Source: Candidatus Omnitrophota bacterium (lineage in GTDB: Bacteria; Omnitrophota; Gorgyraeia; Gygaellales; Profunditerraquicolaceae). From it: a stretch of DNA of 64,000 nucleotides. The stretch is taken from the NCBI GenBank assembly GCA_028715415.1, contig JAQURX010000007.1, positions 11,898-75,897 on the forward strand, read 5' to 3'. A program made the position numbers and the translations under genes. Shown here in pieces: positions 10,090-63,652 of the stretch (position 1 is the stretch's first letter; each line of letters begins with the position of its first letter). The notes below the pieces were generated by a model. That model saw only the letters and a list, made by a program, of their open reading frames with translations. It had not been told where the DNA came from and made no database searches.

Positions 10090-10578
10090 ATTATTACTAC
10101 ACATTCTTTTAATGAATCTGCCACCTTTTCTCGCTCAGGTAGATTTTGCCCCGCCTTTGGCGGGGGGCCGCCAAAGGTCTTTCGCATTTCGGTGGCTGCT
10201 GAACTCGCGCCTCGTGTTCTCACTCGGCGCTCGAACAGCATCGCCATCCCGATATTGTCCCGCATTCGCGGGACATCGGGATTCCCTCAATGCTCAAGCT
10301 GCTTTGGCTAAAATCTACATTCGCTCGAAAAGCCGACAGATTCATTTAATAACATGATTAGAATTTTAGTATTTTGATTCGAGGCGCATTAGAAAACTTT
10401 CGGCAATGGCTATAACCGGTAGTGCGCAAAGATTTACGAGGAGCGAAGGACGGCTCCCAAGAGAACGCTAAGCCGAAGCGACGTGGTAAATCGCAGCGCA
10501 CGGCGAAAGTTTTCAGCGCCGAGAACAAAATACTAAAATTAAACGAGTGATAAACAAGACAAGGCAGACGCGTGAGCG
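10090..10578. repeat. GC-rich composite repeat element, copy A (core module 10422-10523 in + orientation; 15-bp inverted repeat 10362-10376 / 10526-10540 flanks the core)
   Basis: Shares with 34503-34928 and 63188-63652 a ~100-bp core (gtgcgcaaagatttacgaggagcgaaggacggctcc...gtaaatcgcagcgcac...) and a terminal module aacaagacaaggcagacgcg. GC content is far above the flanking genome, and the reading frame is not conserved between copies. Confidence 0.8.
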
Positions 10579-21550: not shown

Positions 21551-21680
21551 ATCTTCGGGGTCCTGCCAATATTAGGCAGGAGGTGAAATTCCTGACCGGC
21601 GGTTAAGCCCGCAAGCCTTAAAAAGGCATGATCTGGTAAAATTCCAGAGCCGATTGTATAGTCTAGATGAGAGAAGGTTA
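21551..21680 (+). promoter_or_regulatory. FMN riboswitch (RFN element) aptamer
   Basis: cttcggggtcctgcc...ggaggtgaaattcctgaccggcggtt...gatctggtaaaattccagagccgattgtatagtctagatgagagaagg matches the conserved RFN strands. It lies 5' of ribBA. Confidence 0.9.
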
Positions 21681-21692
21681 AAAGTAAATTAT

Positions 21693-21727
21693 ACCCGGAG
21701 AACTATCTTCGGGTTTCTTATTTTTGG
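21693..21727 (+). terminator. riboswitch expression-platform attenuator hairpin plus U-tract (acccggagaactatcttcgggtttcttattttt)
   Basis: Stem ACCCG/CGGGU followed by a T-rich run, between the aptamer and the ribBA RBS. Confidence 0.55.
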
Positions 21728-21734
21728 AGAGCTT

Positions 21735-22943
21735 ATGTTTAATTCCATATCAGAGATATTAGAAGATCTTAAGCAAGGCAAGATGGTTATTGTGGTAGAT
21801 GACGAAGACCGCGAGAACGAAGGCGATCTTTTAATGTCCGCAAGTTTTGCCAAGCCTCAGGATATAAATTTCATGGCTAAGTTTGGCAGGGGGCTTATTT
21901 GTGTCCCTATGAAAGAAGATCGTTTAAGCCAACTGGAATTTGAGCCTATGTTAAAGAAAGCAGGGGTTGCTAAGGAAGATCCTTTTGCAACTGCCTGGAT
22001 GATTTCAGCTGATGCGGCTTCCGGTATAACTACCGGCATTTCTGCGTATGATCGTGCGCATACAATTGAAACATTGATTAACCCGCAATCAAAGCCCGAA
22101 GATTTAATTCGTCCGGGGCACATCTTTCCTTTAAGAGCTCGTCGTGGCGGAGTATTAGTCAGAGCAGGGCATACTGAAGCTGCGGTTGACCTAATGAGGC
22201 TTTGTGGCTTATATGAGGCGGGAGTAATCTGTGAAATTATGAATGATGATGGCTCTATGTCCCGCCTTCCGCAATTAATTGAATTTTCAAAAAAGCATTC
22301 GTTAAAGATTTGCACAATTGCTAACTTGATTGAATACCGAAGGCGCTCTGAAAAACTAATTGAACGTTTGACTGAGACAATCCTTCCTACTGAGTTTGGA
22401 AAATATAAATTAATTTTATACCGTGATTTGACAAATAATAAAGTTCATAGTGCTTTAGTTATGGGGGAATTAAAAGAGCCTCAAGTCTTAGTGCGGGTGC
22501 ATTCCGAATGTATGACAGGGGATGTTTTCGGCTCTTTGCGCTGTGATTGCGGAAGGCAATTGAAACAGGCAATGCAATCAATCGATAAAATTAAAAGCGG
22601 AGTTGTGCTTTATATGAGCCAGGAAGGCCGTGGAATCGGGCTTGTCGAAAAGATTAAGGCTTACAATTTGCAGGATAAAGGTATGGATACGGTTGAGGCC
22701 AATGAAGCATTAGGGCATGCTGCGGATCTTAGGGATTATGGGATAGGCGCGCAGATCCTGGTAGATTTAGGGATCAAAGAAATCCGCCTTCTTACAAATA
22801 ATCCTCGTAAGATTGTAGGGCTTGAGGGATACGGGTTAAAGGTGGTTGAGCGCGTTCCTCTGGAGGTTGAGCCTAATGCGGCAAATTATAATTATCTTAA
22901 AACAAAAAAAGAGAAGTTAGGGCACAATTTGAATATAGAATAA
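21735..22943 (+). CDS. ribBA: bifunctional 3,4-dihydroxy-2-butanone-4-phosphate synthase / GTP cyclohydrolase II
   Basis: The N-terminus [32 protein letters not shown] is the RibB start, and the C-terminal half carries the GCH II CxxC...C region (CDCGRQ). The start was moved from the track's TTG at 21654, which lies inside the riboswitch, to the ATG at 21735. Confidence 0.9.
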
Positions 22944-26441: not shown

Positions 26442-26515
26442 CGGGGCGTGGCTCAGTTTGGTAGAGCGCAGCGTTCGGGACGCTGAGGCCGACAGTTCAA
26501 GTCTGTCCGCCCCGA
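26442..26515 (+). tRNA. tRNA-Pro (anticodon CGG)
   Basis: Cloverleaf: acceptor cggggcg/cgccccg, D-arm gctc-agtttggta-gagc, anticodon arm cagcg-ttCGGga-cgctg, T-arm gacag-ttcaagt-ctgtc. It resembles E. coli tRNA-Pro(CGG), and CCA is not encoded. Confidence 0.85.
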
Positions 26516-34286: not shown

Positions 34287-34481
34287 ATGGATCGGAGAGA
34301 AGAGATTAAGAGGCTGGCGGAGTCTTTGTATATTAGAGACGGGCGGAAGAATGATAAGACTTTAGATTATTGGCTTAAGGCAGAAAGAATAGTCCTTCGC
34401 CGCCAGAAGATTCTGAAGTATATGATAGTGGCTATACTTTTGATTGGTATCATGTCTTGGTTATTTCAGCAGAAGATATAA
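34287..34481 (+). CDS. DUF2934-like small protein with C-terminal TM helix
   Basis: IKRLAESLYIRDGRKNDKTLDYWLKAERIV resembles the DUF2934 motif (R..A...W...G.P.G...DW..AE). Confidence 0.45.
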   Translation: MDRREEIKRLAESLYIRDGRKNDKTLDYWLKAERIVLRRQKILKYMIVAILLIGIMSWLFQQKI

Positions 34482-34502
34482 GATTTTTCTATTGTTACTT
34501 CT

Positions 34503-34928
34503 AAATATTCTTTTAATGAATCCGCCGTTTTTAAGTTTGAATTTTAGTGTTTCGCTTTCGGCGCTGAAAATTTTTGCCGTGCGCTGCGATTTACCGCGTC
34601 GCTTCGGCTTAGCATTCTCTTGGGAGCCGTCCTTCGCTCCTCGTAAATCTTTGCGCACTAATCTTAATAGCTGTGCCAAAAATTTTCTAATGCGCCTCCA
34701 GCAAAACACTAAAATTCATATTCGCTCGAATAAACAACAGATTCATTAAAAATAGTAAAGATATTAGCGGCTGACTTGGCTTGATTCTCGCAGCATGTAG
34801 TTTGTGCGAGCGGCCATGGTTCACCCGCTATAAACTCCAGTGAGAGCGAGCGCAAACTCCAAGCGAGTCCCGCCACGGTGGGGCGGGACGAGCGGTGCTG
34901 CGAGAACAAGACAAGGCAGACGCGACAA
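34503..34928. repeat. GC-rich composite repeat element, copy B (core 34557-34658 inverted relative to copy A; 13-bp inverted repeat 34540-34552 / 34704-34716 flanks the core)
   Basis: The reverse complement of 34557-34658 is ~93% identical to 10422-10523. It shares the left module attcttttaatgaatcYgcc and the right module gagaacaagacaaggcagacgcg with copy A. Confidence 0.8.
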
Positions 34929-34940
34929 GTATAATTTATT

Positions 34941-35879
34941 ATGAAAGTAATCTGTGGGTTAAATAAGATTAAGAAATTCCCCAAGCCGGTAGTTTGCCTT
35001 GGGGTTTTTGATGGGATGCATCTTGGCCACATTAGGATTTTAAAAGATGCTGTTAAGACTGCCCGGAGAATAAATGGGACAAGCATCGTTGTAACCTTCT
35101 GTCCGCATCCGCAGAAAAAAGAAAGTTTGTATTCATTAGAGCATAGGCTTAGGTTGATTGCAGAGCAGGGAGTTCAAGTCTGCATTGTTATAAATTTCAC
35201 AGAAAGTTTTGCTAAAACCCTTGCTTATGATTTTGTTAAAGAAATCGTACATGATAAAATTGGCGCAAATTTTGTTTATGTCGGAAAGAATTTTCGTTTC
35301 GGTAAGCATGCCGCAGGCAGTGTTAATTTCTTAAGAAAATTATCCTCCGAATTCAATTTTAAATTGAAATCTTTTGGAGTGCTTAATAGCGACGGAAAGC
35401 CAATCAGTAGTACTTTGATACGTAATTTAAATAAGTCTGGAAAATTAAGTTACGCGGAAAGAGTCTTAGGCCGTCCTGTAAGCGTCCTTGGAACTGTTGT
35501 CCATGGAAATTCTATTGCAAGAAAATTGGGATACTCAACCGCAAACATTAATCCGCATCATGAAGTAATCCCCCCGACGGGTGTTTATGCAGTTGAGGCG
35601 ATTTTAGAGAAAGAGAGATTAAGAGGAATCTGCAATATTGGCGTTCGCCCTACCTTTAGGAAGCCAGGGCCTATAGATGATAGCGCAAAGCATATTGAAG
35701 TGCATGTTTTTAATTTTCACAGGAATATTTATGGAAAATATATTGAGATTCAGTTTTTTAAGAAGATAAGAGAAGAGGTAAAATTCAAAAACTCCTCTTT
35801 ATTAATTAAACAAATTAAAAAAGACATTAATAAAGTCAAAAGCCTGTTTCATCTCCCCAAGAAACACCACAATATATAG
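34941..35879 (+). CDS. ribF: bifunctional riboflavin kinase / FMN adenylyltransferase
   Basis: GVFDGMHLGHIRIL FAD synthetase motif and a C-terminal riboflavin kinase domain. Confidence 0.9.
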   Translation: MKVICGLNKIKKFPKPVVCLGVFDGMHLGHIRILKDAVKTARRINGTSIVVTFCPHPQKKESLYSLEHRLRLIAEQGVQVCIVINFTESFAKTLAYDFVKEIVHDKIGANFVYVGKNFRFGKHAAGSVNFLRKLSSEFNFKLKSFGVLNSDGKPISSTLIRNLNKSGKLSYAERVLGRPVSVLGTVVHGNSIARKLGYSTANINPHHEVIPPTGVYAVEAILEKERLRGICNIGVRPTFRKPGPIDDSAKHIEVHVFNFHRNIYGKYIEIQFFKKIREEVKFKNSSLLIKQIKKDINKVKSLFHLPKKHHNI

Positions 35880-35969: not shown

Positions 35970-35979
35970 TTTGTTACAA

Positions 35980-36005
35980 AGTGGCACAGAGTGGAGCAAA
36001 GTGGA
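35980..36005 (+). promoter_or_regulatory. putative MraZ operator: three direct GTGG repeats on a 10-bp register (aGTGGcacagaGTGGagcaaaGTGGaaagg)
   Basis: Direct repeats read from the sequence, lying between the -10 hexamer and the mraZ start. MraZ is known to bind tandem GTGGG-type repeats in its own promoter. Confidence 0.55.
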
Positions 36006-36016
36006 AAGGATAGAAA

Positions 36017-36463
36017 ATGTTCTATGGTGAGTATTCACATAGCATAGACCGTAAAGGCCGCATTATATTGCCTGCTAAATTCCGCGACGTGGCAAAAAGC
36101 CATTTCATTGAAAAGTTTTTTGTTACTCGCGGTTTAGATACTTGTCTTTTTGTTTTCTCTGAAGAAGAGTGGCGTTCGCAAGAAAATAAATTTAAGGCTA
36201 TTTCTTTTACCAAACAGCAAGCCCGTACATTTAACCGTCTGTATTTCTCCGGAGCTCAGGAAGTTACTTTTGATTCGCAAGGGAGAATGCTTATACCGCA
36301 ATATTTAAAAGATTATGCTGCGATAAAAAAGGATGTGGTTATTGTAGGTGTTTCAAACAGGATTGAAATTTGGTCTAAAGACAAATGGCAGGAATTCTAC
36401 GGGAATTCTCGGCAGTCCTTTGAAGAGATCGCTGAAAAATTAATGGATGAAAAAACAGCATAA
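36017..36463 (+). CDS. mraZ: transcriptional regulator MraZ
   Basis: Duplicated SpoVT/AbrB-like halves (DRKGRIILPAKFR ... DSQGRMLIPQYL). Confidence 0.9.
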   Translation: MFYGEYSHSIDRKGRIILPAKFRDVAKSHFIEKFFVTRGLDTCLFVFSEEEWRSQENKFKAISFTKQQARTFNRLYFSGAQEVTFDSQGRMLIPQYLKDYAAIKKDVVIVGVSNRIEIWSKDKWQEFYGNSRQSFEEIAEKLMDEKTA

Positions 36464-53078: not shown

Positions 53079-53750
53079 ATGGTTAAAGATAATTTAAAGA
53101 AGATTAGAGAACGTATTTTTTCGGTTTGCGCTAAAATTAAGCGTAATCCCGAAACGATAACCATAGTTGCTGTTTCTAAGGGTAGAACTCTTGAGCAAAT
53201 CAAGGAAGCCATTGCCGCAGGCCTATATAATATAGGAGAGAATAGGGTTCAGGAAGCGCTAACCAAATCCAACGAACAGCGAGCCAAATGGCATATGGTT
53301 GGCCATCTTCAGACCAATAAGGTTAAAGAAGCTGTAAAGATCTTTGATTTGATTCATTCGGTGGATAGCTTGCGTCTGGCAGAGGAAATTGATAAACAGG
53401 CAAAAGCATTAGATAAGATTCAGGACATACTAATTGAAGTAAAAACTTCTCCTGAAGCAACGAAATTTGGTTTTAATCCGGATGAAGTTTCCGGAGCGGT
53501 TAAACAAATTTCTGCTTTAATGAATGTGCGGGTATTAGGTTTGATGACTATAGCTCCCGCAGTTGATAACCCAGAAGAAGCCCGTCCTTATTTCCGTCAA
53601 TTGCGGGAATTAAGGGATTCAATTAATTCTTTGCAGCTTGAAACTTGCAGTTTGAAACTTCTTTCTATGGGGATGACTGATGATTTTGAGGTTGCGATAG
53701 AAGAAGGCTCTGATATGGTGCGATTAGGAAAAGCGATATTTGAAGGTTAA
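53079..53750 (+). CDS. yggS: YggS-family pyridoxal-phosphate homeostasis protein
   Basis: Alanine-racemase N-terminal-domain-like fold, AVSKGR PLP-lysine motif; ~220 aa. Confidence 0.85.
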   Translation: MVKDNLKKIRERIFSVCAKIKRNPETITIVAVSKGRTLEQIKEAIAAGLYNIGENRVQEALTKSNEQRAKWHMVGHLQTNKVKEAVKIFDLIHSVDSLRLAEEIDKQAKALDKIQDILIEVKTSPEATKFGFNPDEVSGAVKQISALMNVRVLGLMTIAPAVDNPEEARPYFRQLRELRDSINSLQLETCSLKLLSMGMTDDFEVAIEEGSDMVRLGKAIFEG

Positions 53751-54584: not shown

Positions 54585-54604
54585 TTTAATTTTGATACTT
54601 TTCA

Positions 54605-54633
54605 CTTGAAATTTGAAACCTGAAACTTGAAAC
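54605..54633 (+). repeat. tandem array of four TTGAAA(C) heptamer/octamer units (cttgaaa-tttgaaac-ctgaaac-ttgaaac) between proC and mtnP
   Basis: Direct repeats read from the sequence; the same unit recurs at 59166-59237. Confidence 0.6.
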
Positions 54634-58727: not shown

Positions 58728-59159
58728 ATGATTCAAATCATCGTAATATCCGTCCTTTTTTTAGACCAACTCACAAAATTTCTTGTTGTTAAAAATCTTG
58801 CCTTGGGTAGTTCTATCCCCATAATCAACGGGATTTTCCATCTAAGCCTTGTCCATAATAAGGGAGCCGCCTTTGGAATCTTAAAGAATCAGGTTCCGTT
58901 TTTAATCGCCACTTCTTTATTTACCATTATTTTATTTTATTTCGCCTTAAAGGATAATAAGCATAAAATATTTTACTGTGTATCTTTAAGCCTTGTTTTG
59001 GCGGGTGCTCTTGGTAATCTCATTGACAGGGTGCGTGTCGGATATGTCATAGATTTCCTTGATTTTCGCATCTGGCCTGTATTTAATATCGCTGACAGCG
59101 CGATAACTATCGGAGCTGTAATGTTGGGGTGGTCTATATTAACGGAGAAAGAAAAGTAG
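58728..59159 (+). CDS. lspA: lipoprotein signal peptidase II
   Basis: Four-TM protein with NKGAAFG and FNIADSAI motifs, in ileS-lspA synteny. Confidence 0.9.
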   Translation: MIQIIVISVLFLDQLTKFLVVKNLALGSSIPIINGIFHLSLVHNKGAAFGILKNQVPFLIATSLFTIILFYFALKDNKHKIFYCVSLSLVLAGALGNLIDRVRVGYVIDFLDFRIWPVFNIADSAITIGAVMLGWSILTEKEK

Positions 59160-59165
59160 TTCCAA

Positions 59166-59237
59166 GTTTCAAGTTGCAAGTTTCAGGTTTCAAGCATTTA
59201 ATCTTGAACCTTGAAACTTGAAACTTGAATCTTGAAA
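59166..59237. repeat. long imperfect hairpin built from heptamer repeats: 4x GTTTCAAG-like units, loop catttaat, 5x CTTGAAAC-like units
   Basis: gtttcaag ttgcaag tttcagg tttcaag | catttaat | cttgaac cttgaaac ttgaaac ttgaat cttgaaac. It lies between lspA and lgt and is related to the 54605-54633 array. Confidence 0.65.
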
Positions 59238-59248
59238 CGGAGTTTAGT

Positions 59249-61866: not shown

Positions 61867-63182
61867 GTTTTTTTGTTGTAAAGCCGCTTTCACGTATCAA
61901 GGGAATTGTTGATTTACCCGGTGATAAATCAATAGCCCACCGCGCGATTATCTTAAGCGCAATTGCAAAAGGCAAAACGCTCGTAAAGAATTTCCCTCTT
62001 AATAAAGATTGCCTAAGCACTATAGAAGCTATTCGTAAATTAGGCGTTAGAATTATAAAAAAAGAAAAAGATTTTGTTGTTTCAGGAAAAGGGCTTTCGG
62101 GGTTAACTAAACCTAAAAGCCCTATTTTTATTGAAGAGTCTGGGACTACTTTTAGGCTCTTCTTAGGCCTTCTTGCCGGCCAATCGTTCCAAACTACTCT
62201 TATAGCAGGTAAATCGCTTTCTAATCGTCCGATGCTGCGTGTCAATGCCCCGTTAAGATTGATGGGGGCTAAAATTTGCGCTAACGAAAAGAAGCAAGCA
62301 GGTAAGCCCGAAGATTATCCTCCGATTGTAATTAATGGTGGGAAACTTAAACCAATTGAATACAGCCTCCCAGTTGCCTCTGCGCAGGTAAAGTCAGCGC
62401 TACTTTTGGCTGCGCTATATGCAAAAGGTGAAACTAAGATTATTGAACCGGTTAATACGAGGGATCATACTGAACGCATGCTTAAGATGTTTAAGGCAGA
62501 TATTGAAACTCAAGGCAGCGTAATATCTTTAAAAGGCGGAAGAGAATTAGAGTCTCCGAATGAAGTCTTTTGTCCCGGAGACATATCTTCTGCAAGTTTT
62601 TTTATTGTTGCATCCATAGTCCTTCCTGATTCTGAAATATTAATAAAAAATGTTTGTTTAAATCCTTCGCGCCTTGGAGTTATCAATGTATTAAAAAGAA
62701 TGGGTGTGGATATTGAAATTAATGAATTAAGAGGCGAGGAATTTGAACCTATAGGTGATTTATTGGCAAAAAGCAGCAATCTAAAAAGCACTATTATCAA
62801 GAAAGAGGAAATTCCTACCTTGATAGATGAACTTCCTGTTTTGATGGTTGCAGCTTCGTTTGCAAAAGGAAAAAGTGTTTTTGAAGGAGTTGAAGAGCTG
62901 CGTGTTAAAGAAACTGACCGGATACAATCAATGTGTGATGGCCTTAAAAAGATGGGTGTTGATATCTTCGTTGTAAAATCTGCAAGTAGAGAAGATGTAG
63001 TTATAAATGGTGGAAATAAACTTAAGGGCAATGAAGTAAGAAGTTTTGGCGACCATCGCACTGCGATGAGTTTGATTATTGCTGGGCTTGCAGCAGATGG
63101 AGAAACCCGCATAGATGATGTTTCTTGTATTGATAAATCCTTCCCTGATTTCTTAAAAATTCTAAAGAATATAACTAAGTAA
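61863..63182 (+). CDS. aroA: 3-phosphoshikimate 1-carboxyvinyltransferase (EPSP synthase)
   Basis: LPGDKSIAHRAIILSAIAKG N-terminal motif; ~440 aa. Confidence 0.9.
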   Translation: MSFFVVKPLSRIKGIVDLPGDKSIAHRAIILSAIAKGKTLVKNFPLNKDCLSTIEAIRKLGVRIIKKEKDFVVSGKGLSGLTKPKSPIFIEESGTTFRLFLGLLAGQSFQTTLIAGKSLSNRPMLRVNAPLRLMGAKICANEKKQAGKPEDYPPIVINGGKLKPIEYSLPVASAQVKSALLLAALYAKGETKIIEPVNTRDHTERMLKMFKADIETQGSVISLKGGRELESPNEVFCPGDISSASFFIVASIVLPDSEILIKNVCLNPSRLGVINVLKRMGVDIEINELRGEEFEPIGDLLAKSSNLKSTIIKKEEIPTLIDELPVLMVAASFAKGKSVFEGVEELRVKETDRIQSMCDGLKKMGVDIFVVKSASREDVVINGGNKLKGNEVRSFGDHRTAMSLIIAGLAADGETRIDDVSCIDKSFPDFLKILKNITK

Positions 63183-63187
63183 AAAAA

Positions 63188-63652
63188 GGTTCCGCGTCTG
63201 CCTTGTCTTCTGTTTTCTCGGGGACGCTTATTTTGCCCCTGCGAGGCAAAATTTCGCTCCCCTGCGGTGCCTCGCTCTGCCTACTTTCTATTTAGCTGGG
63301 CATCCGTGCCCGCTCGGCATCCTCGGAGGCCCCGATAAAACAAAAGCCAAGCCATCCGCTGAAACAGATTATCTATAGCTTTATGGTTTTTGCGGACGGC
63401 ACATTAGAAGATTTTTGGCACAGCTACTAACACTAGTGCGCAAGGATTTACGAGGAGCGGAGGACAGCTACAAGAGAACGCTAAGCCGTAGCGACGAAGT
63501 AAACCGCAGCGCACGGCAAAAATCTTCAGTGCCGGAAGCGAAAACCATAAAGCAAAAGTATAAAGAGCGGTGCTGCGAGAAACAGCCCAGCGAGGGCGCA
63601 CTTGCCAATCCGATATGGCAAGGTGCAAGACAAGGCAGACGCGGAACTACTA
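63188..63652. repeat. GC-rich composite repeat element, copy C (core 63437-63536 in + orientation; 22-bp terminal inverted repeats ttccgcgtctgccttgtcttc / gcaagacaaggcagacgcggaa)
   Basis: The core is ~88% identical to 10422-10523. Both ends carry the gacaaggcagacgcg module in inverted orientation, giving a MITE-like architecture. The element is GC-rich within an AT-rich genome. Confidence 0.8.

Follow-up and report, generated by a model that had tools for sequence, protein, structure and literature searches.

REP units of 20-40 nt and REPINs of approximately 70-110 nt carry a conserved GTAG plus palindrome at their ends. The REPIN/REP-BIME elements (RAYT, HUH Y1) are GC-rich intergenic hairpin repeats that are present in many copies per genome and in either orientation. 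They have neither target-site duplications nor classical terminal repeats, occur in mosaic clusters, remain for long at some loci, and are homogeneous within a genome. The ERIC, Correia/NEMIS, RUP, BOX and bcr1 repeats are intergenic imperfect palindromes of 100-200 bp that also occur in both orientations, exhibit size variants due to insertion at fixed internal sites, and can be modular (BOX A/B/C). Conserved terminal repeats and target duplications are features of Correia, RUP and bcr1. Integron attC sites and IS200/IS605 ends are folded single strands with conserved unpaired or extrahelical bases and variable stems, and in invertible switches such as Hin/Gin/Cin, fim and the shufflons, a segment between short inverted repeats is found in both orientations.

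Here we describe a repeat, termed the core, that shares each of the listed REPIN/REP-BIME traits and is a dispersed intergenic hairpin palindrome without target duplication. However, it is ~173 nt long with variable ends and a conserved interior, and terminal REP units (GTAG plus short palindrome, as inverted doublets) are absent from its termini. Moreover, to our knowledge the nesting of cargo in a hairpin apex is not a described REPIN feature. The core resembles the ERIC-type repeats in its palindromic form, its two orientations, its internal size variants and its modularity, but it has no sequence similarity to them, resides in a different phylum and exhibits far more extensive covariation, and it has neither the terminal repeats nor the target duplications of Correia, RUP and bcr1. 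Its likeness to attC sites and IS200/IS605 ends lies in conserved unpaired bases, variable stems and a function that would depend on the folded strand; there is no nearby integrase, cassette array or TnpA, the R'/R'' motifs of attC (GTTRRRY / RYYYAAC) are absent, and the core is much larger and has multiple helices. Unlike the invertible switches, it has no conserved recombination site, adjoining recombinase, promoter or alternative coding payload, and its two orientations are found at different loci with different architectures.

Three hairpin mosaics in an Omnitrophota genome

The window, by which we mean the whole 64,000-nt stretch of Candidatus Omnitrophota DNA that was analysed, encodes a RibF protein (34941-35879) with a 100% identical counterpart in a Candidatus Omnitrophica MAG. 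A covariance-model search recovers exactly three core copies. The GC content of the window is 38%, and nowhere but in the three repeat regions (A, B and C) do islands reach 55% GC or more. Each region is located between co-directional housekeeping genes:

Region A: upstream, an AddB-like PD-(D/E)XK nuclease; downstream, an unknown protein
Region B: upstream, RbfA, a DHH phosphoesterase and DUF2934; downstream, RibF and MraZ
Region C: upstream, EPSP synthase; downstream, MreB

The original prediction was made for copies A and B and overlooked the third core (63375-63558, + strand). It had placed perfect inverted repeats around each core, and these are present exactly where they were reported: aattttagtattttg (10362-10376) and caaaatactaaaatt (10526-10540) in copy A, and aattttagtgttt (34540-34552) and aaacactaaaatt (34704-34716) in copy B, along with a nested pair formed by ttttaatgaatc (34511-34522) and gattcattaaaa (34740-34751). 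We likewise find that core B (34540-34716) is the reverse complement of core A (10362-10540), with 86% complementarity over 150 nt, and that copies A and B carry the flanking modules L (attcttttaatgaatcYgcc), X (attcgctcgaa...cagattcatt) and R (aagacaaggcagacgcg) on the same strand. The covariance model places core A on the + strand and core B on the - strand with ~131 bits each; because the wrong strand of a core copy scores only ~25 bits, compared with 130-195 bits for the right strand, core orientation is unambiguous. What had escaped notice is that the module order differs, being L-GC1-X-core-R in copy A and L-core-X-GC2-R in copy B. The features of the three regions are as follows:

10104..10350, - strand: copy A frame-1 hairpin with cargo GC1, core not enclosed (DNA fold z = -9.4, motif map)
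10360..10545, + strand: core hairpin repeat, copy A (cmsearch 130.6 bits; fold -73.3 kcal/mol, z = -7.6)
34507..34526, - strand: frame-1 3' arm (module L), reading GGCGGATTCATTAAAAGAAT on the - strand and pairing with 34732-34751 in the DNA fold
34535..34719, - strand: core hairpin repeat, copy B (cmsearch 131 bits, E = 1e-38)
34720..34751, - strand: frame-1 5' arm (module X), reading TTTTAATGAATCTGTTGTTTATTCGAGCGAAT on the - strand (DNA fold)
34764..34925, + strand: second hairpin repeat (E2 frame) with cargo GC2, a separate long hairpin in the fold
63192..63362, - strand: copy C E2 frame with GC3-type cargo (motif map; aligns with the E2 frame plus GC3 of related locus L069)
63375..63558, + strand: core hairpin repeat, copy C (cmsearch 142.8 bits; fold -72.7 kcal/mol, z = -8.8)
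63563..63645, + strand: copy C E2-type 3' arm, GAGCGGTGCTGCGAGAAAC ... AAGACAAGGCAGACGCG, split by a short GC-rich insert (GC4)

Copy B folds as two adjoining hairpins, the first composed of frame 1 plus a core in canonical orientation (the whole unit on the - strand, 34507-34751) and the second of E2 plus GC2. Core B itself has a folding energy of -76.2 kcal/mol (z = -8.7) and is also detected as an inverted repeat, with the repeats at 34540-34552 and 34704-34716 forming its basal helix, P1. The arms of the E2 hairpin are TTAGCGGCTGACTTGGCT..ATTCTCGCAGCA and TGCTGCGAGAAC..AAGACAAGGCAGACGCG, the 3' arm being module R. In the fold of copy A, L (10104-10123) and X (10318-10346) close around 10124-10317, and the core lies outside this frame, followed by the remnant of an E2-type 3' arm that ends in R (10556-10572). 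Copy C carries the R arm in reverse complement at 63193-63209, and its 3' arm has gagcggtgctgcgagaa in common with copy B and forms an inverted repeat with 63174-63209. Core C exhibits a distinct P1 (GCTTTATGGTTTTTGC / GCGAAAACCATAAAGC) and a compensated P2 (GGCAC / GTGCC).

Several other sequences in the window were recorded in passing. Mechanically called ORFs cross the copy B repeats at 34444-34749 (+), 34461-34709 (-) and 34709-35086 (-). A 10-bp direct repeat (ACAAAGTGGA, 3.1 copies) at 35976-36006, just upstream of mraZ (36017-36463), resembles the repeated operator boxes of MraZ that are known ahead of the dcw cluster. Arrays of a CTTGAAA heptamer occupy short intergenic spacers at 59158-59238, 54604-54633 and 53631-53660, and may be protein-binding arrays; the first is an inverted pair with about five AGTTTCA opposite about five CTTGAAA. 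An FMN riboswitch (21565-21682, 82 bits) precedes the ORF at 21654-22943, and this element and one tRNA gene (26442-26515) are the only Rfam matches at gathering level in the window.

Structure and covariation of the core

The core is an imperfect palindrome of ~173 nt (about 175) that forms a multi-helix hairpin. Folding energies of its copies range from -68 to -76 kcal/mol, with z-scores between -7.3 and -8.8, and none of 200 shuffled sequences is as stable. Complementarity is not confined to the 13-15 bp repeats on which the original prediction was centred: five helices span the whole core, and those repeats are the basal helix P1 of its hairpin. P1 is the outer helix (13-19 bp), followed by P2 (for example GCGTGC / GCACGC), an A/T-rich P3 of 11-12 bp, P4 (for example GTGCGC / GCGCAC) and an invariant P5 (GGATTTAC / GTAAACC). 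Helices P1 to P4 covary from copy to copy. A purine-rich internal loop (GAGGAGCG / AGCGACGAA) is invariant, and can be drawn as tandem G.A pairs split by G-C pairs. Across the family the apical domain is variable; within one genome it is uniform while the stems differ, as seen for CAAGAGAAYGCTAAGCCG in all window copies and for the AAATACGGAC apical domain in both core copies of L024.

A covariance model was built from 33 copies. In the resulting model-based alignment, 97.9% of the cells are paired, and double changes are evident in 21 of the 33 pairs (211 cells), a result matched by none of 500 shuffles, with 5-17 cells in slid controls. P1 is too variable for a MAFFT alignment, and its covariation was therefore measured by an arm-swap test, wherein cognate arms pair with -19.7 kcal/mol and non-cognate arms with -11.4 +/- 3.9. 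The variability of this helix is such that 61 copies have 56 distinct 5' arms. The ends are the most variable part of the core, and its conserved sequence is internal (GGATTTACGAGGAGCG ... AGCGACGAAGTAAACC).

Additional small hairpins at fixed internal sites lengthen some cores by 12-14, 20, 28 or 63 nt. These increments are not multiples of three, on which ground we regard the core as non-coding and rejected a coding interpretation. An intrinsic-terminator function was also discarded, given that no T-run follows the GC-rich stems in either orientation. In addition, frame 1, E2 and the invariant loop of the core all contain a short motif, GAGC facing GCGA, with the same strand sense each time (for example 34720-34735 on the - strand, 10318-10330, and GGAGCG / AGCGAC of the core); it could be drawn as tandem sheared G.A pairs with G-C pairs on either side.

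Frames and interchangeable cargo

About half of the cores are naked, and the others reside at the apex of a small frame hairpin. We recognise two such frames:

Frame 1, 5' arm: AATGAATCTG..TTTCGAGCGAAT (also AATGAATCTG..TTTCGAGCG)
Frame 1, 3' arm: GAGCGAGAAAA..CAGATTCATT (also GAGCGAGAAA..CAGATTCATT)
Frame E2: 5' arm TTAGCGGGTGGCTTGGCT..TTTCGAGC; 3' arm GCGAGAAA..AAGACAAGGCAGACGCG or ..AGCCAGGACCCGC

The frame-1 motifs recur well beyond copy B. Those of the 5' arm, AATGAATCTG and TTTCGAGCGAAT, are found 12-78 nt upstream of the core and in the same orientation in 12-14 other copies, and the CAGATTCATT-type motif of the 3' arm is 11-24 nt downstream in 8 other copies. E2 frames related to the one at 34764..34925, with other cargo, are present in L066, L069, L053 and L037 as well as in window copy C. 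Every framed core has one orientation relative to the asymmetric frame motifs, and a reversed core within a frame was seen in none of the 64 distinct copies taken from other genomes and metagenomes. An extra E2-framed core in L066 also has the canonical orientation.

Other GC-rich cargos occupy frames 1 and E2 as well, the core being one cargo among several. The smallest arrangement is a minimal E2 of 72 nt with an 11-nt apex, located just upstream of ribF in L066, and another is present in L037. Each region is a mosaic of GC-rich intergenic hairpin repeats, in which frames hold interchangeable cargo at their apices. The cargos GC1, GC2 and GC3 are repeat families too, forming long hairpins and having relatives in other genomes. 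GC-rich cargo sites were noted at window positions 10124-10317, 34796-34895 and 63210-63344, at 700-940 of L068 and at 2226-2460 of L069.

Distribution and orthologous loci

Pattern scans located the core in one other Omnitrophota MAG, one MAG labelled Planctomycetales and 61 metagenome contigs, and the covariance model yields 67 strong matches in 65 other loci, with up to three per 13 kb. Framed cores of ~250 nt that are nearly identical are present at four different loci beside different genes, which indicates recent dispersal. Relative to co-directional flanking genes, 27 cores are antisense and 14 sense (25 and 14 when duplicates are removed). The 'uncultured Planctomycetales' MAG (CAYOMI01; L002 and L003) has at least three cores, essentially identical to the metagenome copies L023 and L055; the label may be loose, or else the family is not restricted to Omnitrophota.

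The family appears to be previously undescribed. Searches of Rfam gave nothing above chance level for the repeats (the window at the gathering threshold, and 34450-34950 at E up to 10). No match to the core was found by blastn against PLSDB plasmids and INPHARED phages or by pattern scan of IMG/VR viral contigs, and nothing relevant emerged from the literature, whether it was searched by topic or by sequence string.

Loci carrying ribF, chosen for comparison by protein homology alone, provide a view of how one spacer changes. Between the DHH and ribF genes, each genome sampled has a different combination of modules, and every genome sampled has some member of the hairpin families. L012 (RibF 73% identical) has the architecture of copy B, in which an antisense core within frame 1 is followed by E2 and ribF, and it has the same P1 type. 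In L066 (RibF 63%), the antisense core is framed by E2 and accompanied by a small membrane ORF and the minimal E2. In L069 and L070 the core is missing and E2 encloses GC3 cargo, and L068 likewise lacks a core and carries GC1-type cargo in a frame-1 arm. In L001 (RibF 87%), a sense core lies 25 nt from the ATG, and the contig ends within the core. Directly past the DHH stop codon, L066 and L069 have nearly identical E2 arms that enclose the core in one case and GC3 in the other, an exchange of cargo in a conserved frame at this orthologous site. A called 218-aa 'gene' in L066 (1754-2410) is the E2-framed core fused to the real small membrane ORF.

When flanking proteins are clustered, many orthologous spacers with a core are evident across genomes, often with the core in opposite orientation. 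Ahead of a metF-like gene, the core is sense at 2-8 nt in three genomes and antisense at ~240 nt in two. Opposite orientations are also observed for L032 versus L037 and L002 versus L018, among others. Such loci also differ in where the core lies, in the modules that accompany it and usually in P1 subtype. By contrast, window copy B and L012, and likewise L040 and L062, share locus-specific P1/P2 sequences at orthologous sites, which argues for vertical inheritance with fixed orientation. Short-read contigs end within the core in L001 (1-54) and also in L004, L039 and L042, and this tendency of the family to fragment assemblies limits the comparison of orthologous loci.

Inversion, RNA function and domestication as alternatives

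The original prediction took the repeats around the core as the possible bounds of an invertible, shufflon-like segment. In this model the core would flip in situ between its 13-15 bp repeats by site-specific or hairpin-mediated inversion, as in phase variation. Perfect inverted repeats do flank the core, and its orientation does vary: L001 has a sense core ahead of ribF where the window, L012 and L066 have an antisense one, and both the metF-like loci (sense in three genomes, antisense in two) and the L032/L037 pair differ. Nevertheless, we judge inversion to be very improbable. The P1 sequence differs even among the three window copies and covaries as a helix, and therefore it is not a conserved recombination site. 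No recombinase gene was found among the neighbours of regions A, B and C or at syntenic loci. Copies A and B are at different loci with different module order, and so they are not interconvertible by inversion between the repeats: in B the core is framed, canonical and on the - strand, in A it is unframed, on the + strand and beside a frame with other cargo, and the opposite orientation of the two is due to separate insertions with different architecture. The neighbouring modules seem to keep their orientation simply because A and B both happen to carry frame 1 on the - strand. As already noted, no framed core is reversed and the arrangement of copy B recurs in L012. The comparison of the same loci in related genomes that the prediction proposed gave a fixed orientation for B and L012; at loci where orientation differs, so do position, neighbouring modules and usually P1 subtype. 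Five strain-level pairs of loci (L017/L065, L024/L045, L002/L023, L003/L055 and L016/L039), as assembled, each keep one orientation. Between L032 and L037 the whole core-plus-E2 block is reversed, and although its order and orientation fit an in-situ inversion of the block, we rejected this because no repeats are present at the block ends and the cores are of different P1 subtypes. A true DNA switch would have been remarkable, but the evidence gives no support for one, and no switch features were observed.

If the orientations do not reflect a switch, the core could instead function as a structured non-coding RNA, either cis-regulatory or a multi-copy small RNA, and possibly a ribozyme or protein-binding RNA, in which case the invariant GAGGAGCG / AGCGACGAA loop would be the functional centre. 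We regard this as improbable, although the very strong covariation and the invariant unpaired nucleotides are what such an RNA might exhibit. The + strand of the core folds more stably than the - strand in 58 of 64 copies, several copies precede, by 2-8 nt, the ribosome-binding sites of genes that are orthologues in different genomes, and the apical domain is the same within a genome and differs between genomes, as if it were co-evolving with a trans-acting factor. The stability of the + strand and the strand-specific purine loop imply that some single strand, DNA or RNA, is recognised. Several observations speak against an RNA. Cores do not favour either direction of flanking transcription (25 antisense, 14 sense), Rfam yields no matching family even with E relaxed to 10, the core is nested inside other repeats, and its near-identical copies at unrelated loci and its cargo swaps resemble mobile DNA. 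Pairing behaviour points the same way. Compensation in the core helices is essentially Watson-Crick to Watson-Crick, and the mismatches in fixed helices comprise 18 G.T and 12 A.C in 2135 cells; G.U thus accounts for just 0.85% of cells and is not in excess of A.C, which is atypical of RNA helices. This lack of a wobble excess fits DNA hairpins, or neutral decay after insertion with perfect pairing required only at mobilisation, and does not fit a G.U-tolerant RNA. Counts of G.U in minimum-free-energy folds (117 on the + strand, 186 on the - strand) are an ambiguous test of strand. The same Watson-Crick-only compensation, suggesting pairing at the DNA level, could also be expected if the host had domesticated the core as a structural DNA element, much as BIME/REP sequences serve functions in E. 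coli. Such an element might insulate operons, or form a cruciform or hairpin to which a topoisomerase, nucleoid or replication protein binds. The restriction of the family to spacers between housekeeping operons, the presence of some hairpin-family member in every DHH-ribF spacer sampled and the retention of the copy B arrangement in L012 are in line with such a role. However, module identity at a given locus is not conserved, we know of no binding protein for the core, and domestication is compatible with a selfish origin and is not an alternative to one; we consider it quite improbable as the explanation.

A probable mobile hairpin family

We conclude that these repeats are probably a non-autonomous hairpin-repeat family, of the REPIN/BIME and ERIC kind, dispersed in either orientation and nested in the apices of one another's hairpins. 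The elements would be non-autonomous mobile DNA recognised as folded single strands, and are probably mobilised in trans by a structure-specific single-strand DNA enzyme that may prefer to insert them at the single-stranded apices of other hairpins. The most plausible mobiliser would be a HUH enzyme of the REPIN/RAYT-like or IS200/IS605-like type. We found no target-site duplications, there being only A/T-rich dinucleotide direct repeats at helix boundaries, and no conserved terminal repeats in the core family, and in both respects the core is as expected of HUH-mobilised elements.

The original prediction had also raised the possibility of a nested MITE-in-MITE. The nesting is real, given that hairpin repeats do reside in the apices of others, and the core is small, non-coding, multi-copy, intergenic and found in either orientation, as MITEs are. 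It is the MITE label that does not hold, since target-site duplications and terminal repeats conserved in sequence are lacking, with variable ends and a conserved interior instead.

Some observations temper the conclusion that the family is mobile DNA. Neither a transposase or RAYT-like gene nor a gene flanked by frame or E2 arms, which would be a candidate autonomous element, was identified in the DNA covered, 64 kb from this genome together with ~410 kb from related loci. No pair of empty and filled sites was recovered for a naked core, and consequently the ends and target of the mobile unit are not defined. The B/L012 and L040/L062 copies look vertically inherited and stable, which fits a conserved host function and old insertions equally well. 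We also count the better folding of the + strand (58 of 64 copies) against mobile DNA, and the strand-specific G.A-type loop would suit an RNA. A more elaborate version, which we consider unlikely, is a Russian-doll cassette system in which hairpins are inserted and exchanged specifically at apices, or a core that is a new class of structured RNA or ribozyme spread by such a system. In the cassette system, a genome-encoded factor would recognise the invariant tandem-G.A loop together with the genome-specific apical domain.

Implications for Omnitrophota genomes

Regardless of how they move, these elements constitute a strongly structured frame-plus-cargo repeat family that is widespread in Omnitrophota, a candidate phylum in which there is almost no experimental genetics. 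The repeats mark hot spots of intergenic turnover and are a likely source of false gene calls in Omnitrophota MAGs. The family also offers a clean natural data set on the upkeep of base pairs in long DNA hairpins. If the Russian-doll or RNA interpretation were true, the core would represent an undescribed class of mobile element or RNA specific to Omnitrophota. The family could also throw light on structure-specific single-strand DNA transposition beyond the model phyla, should an enzyme that mobilises it or a factor that binds it be discovered.
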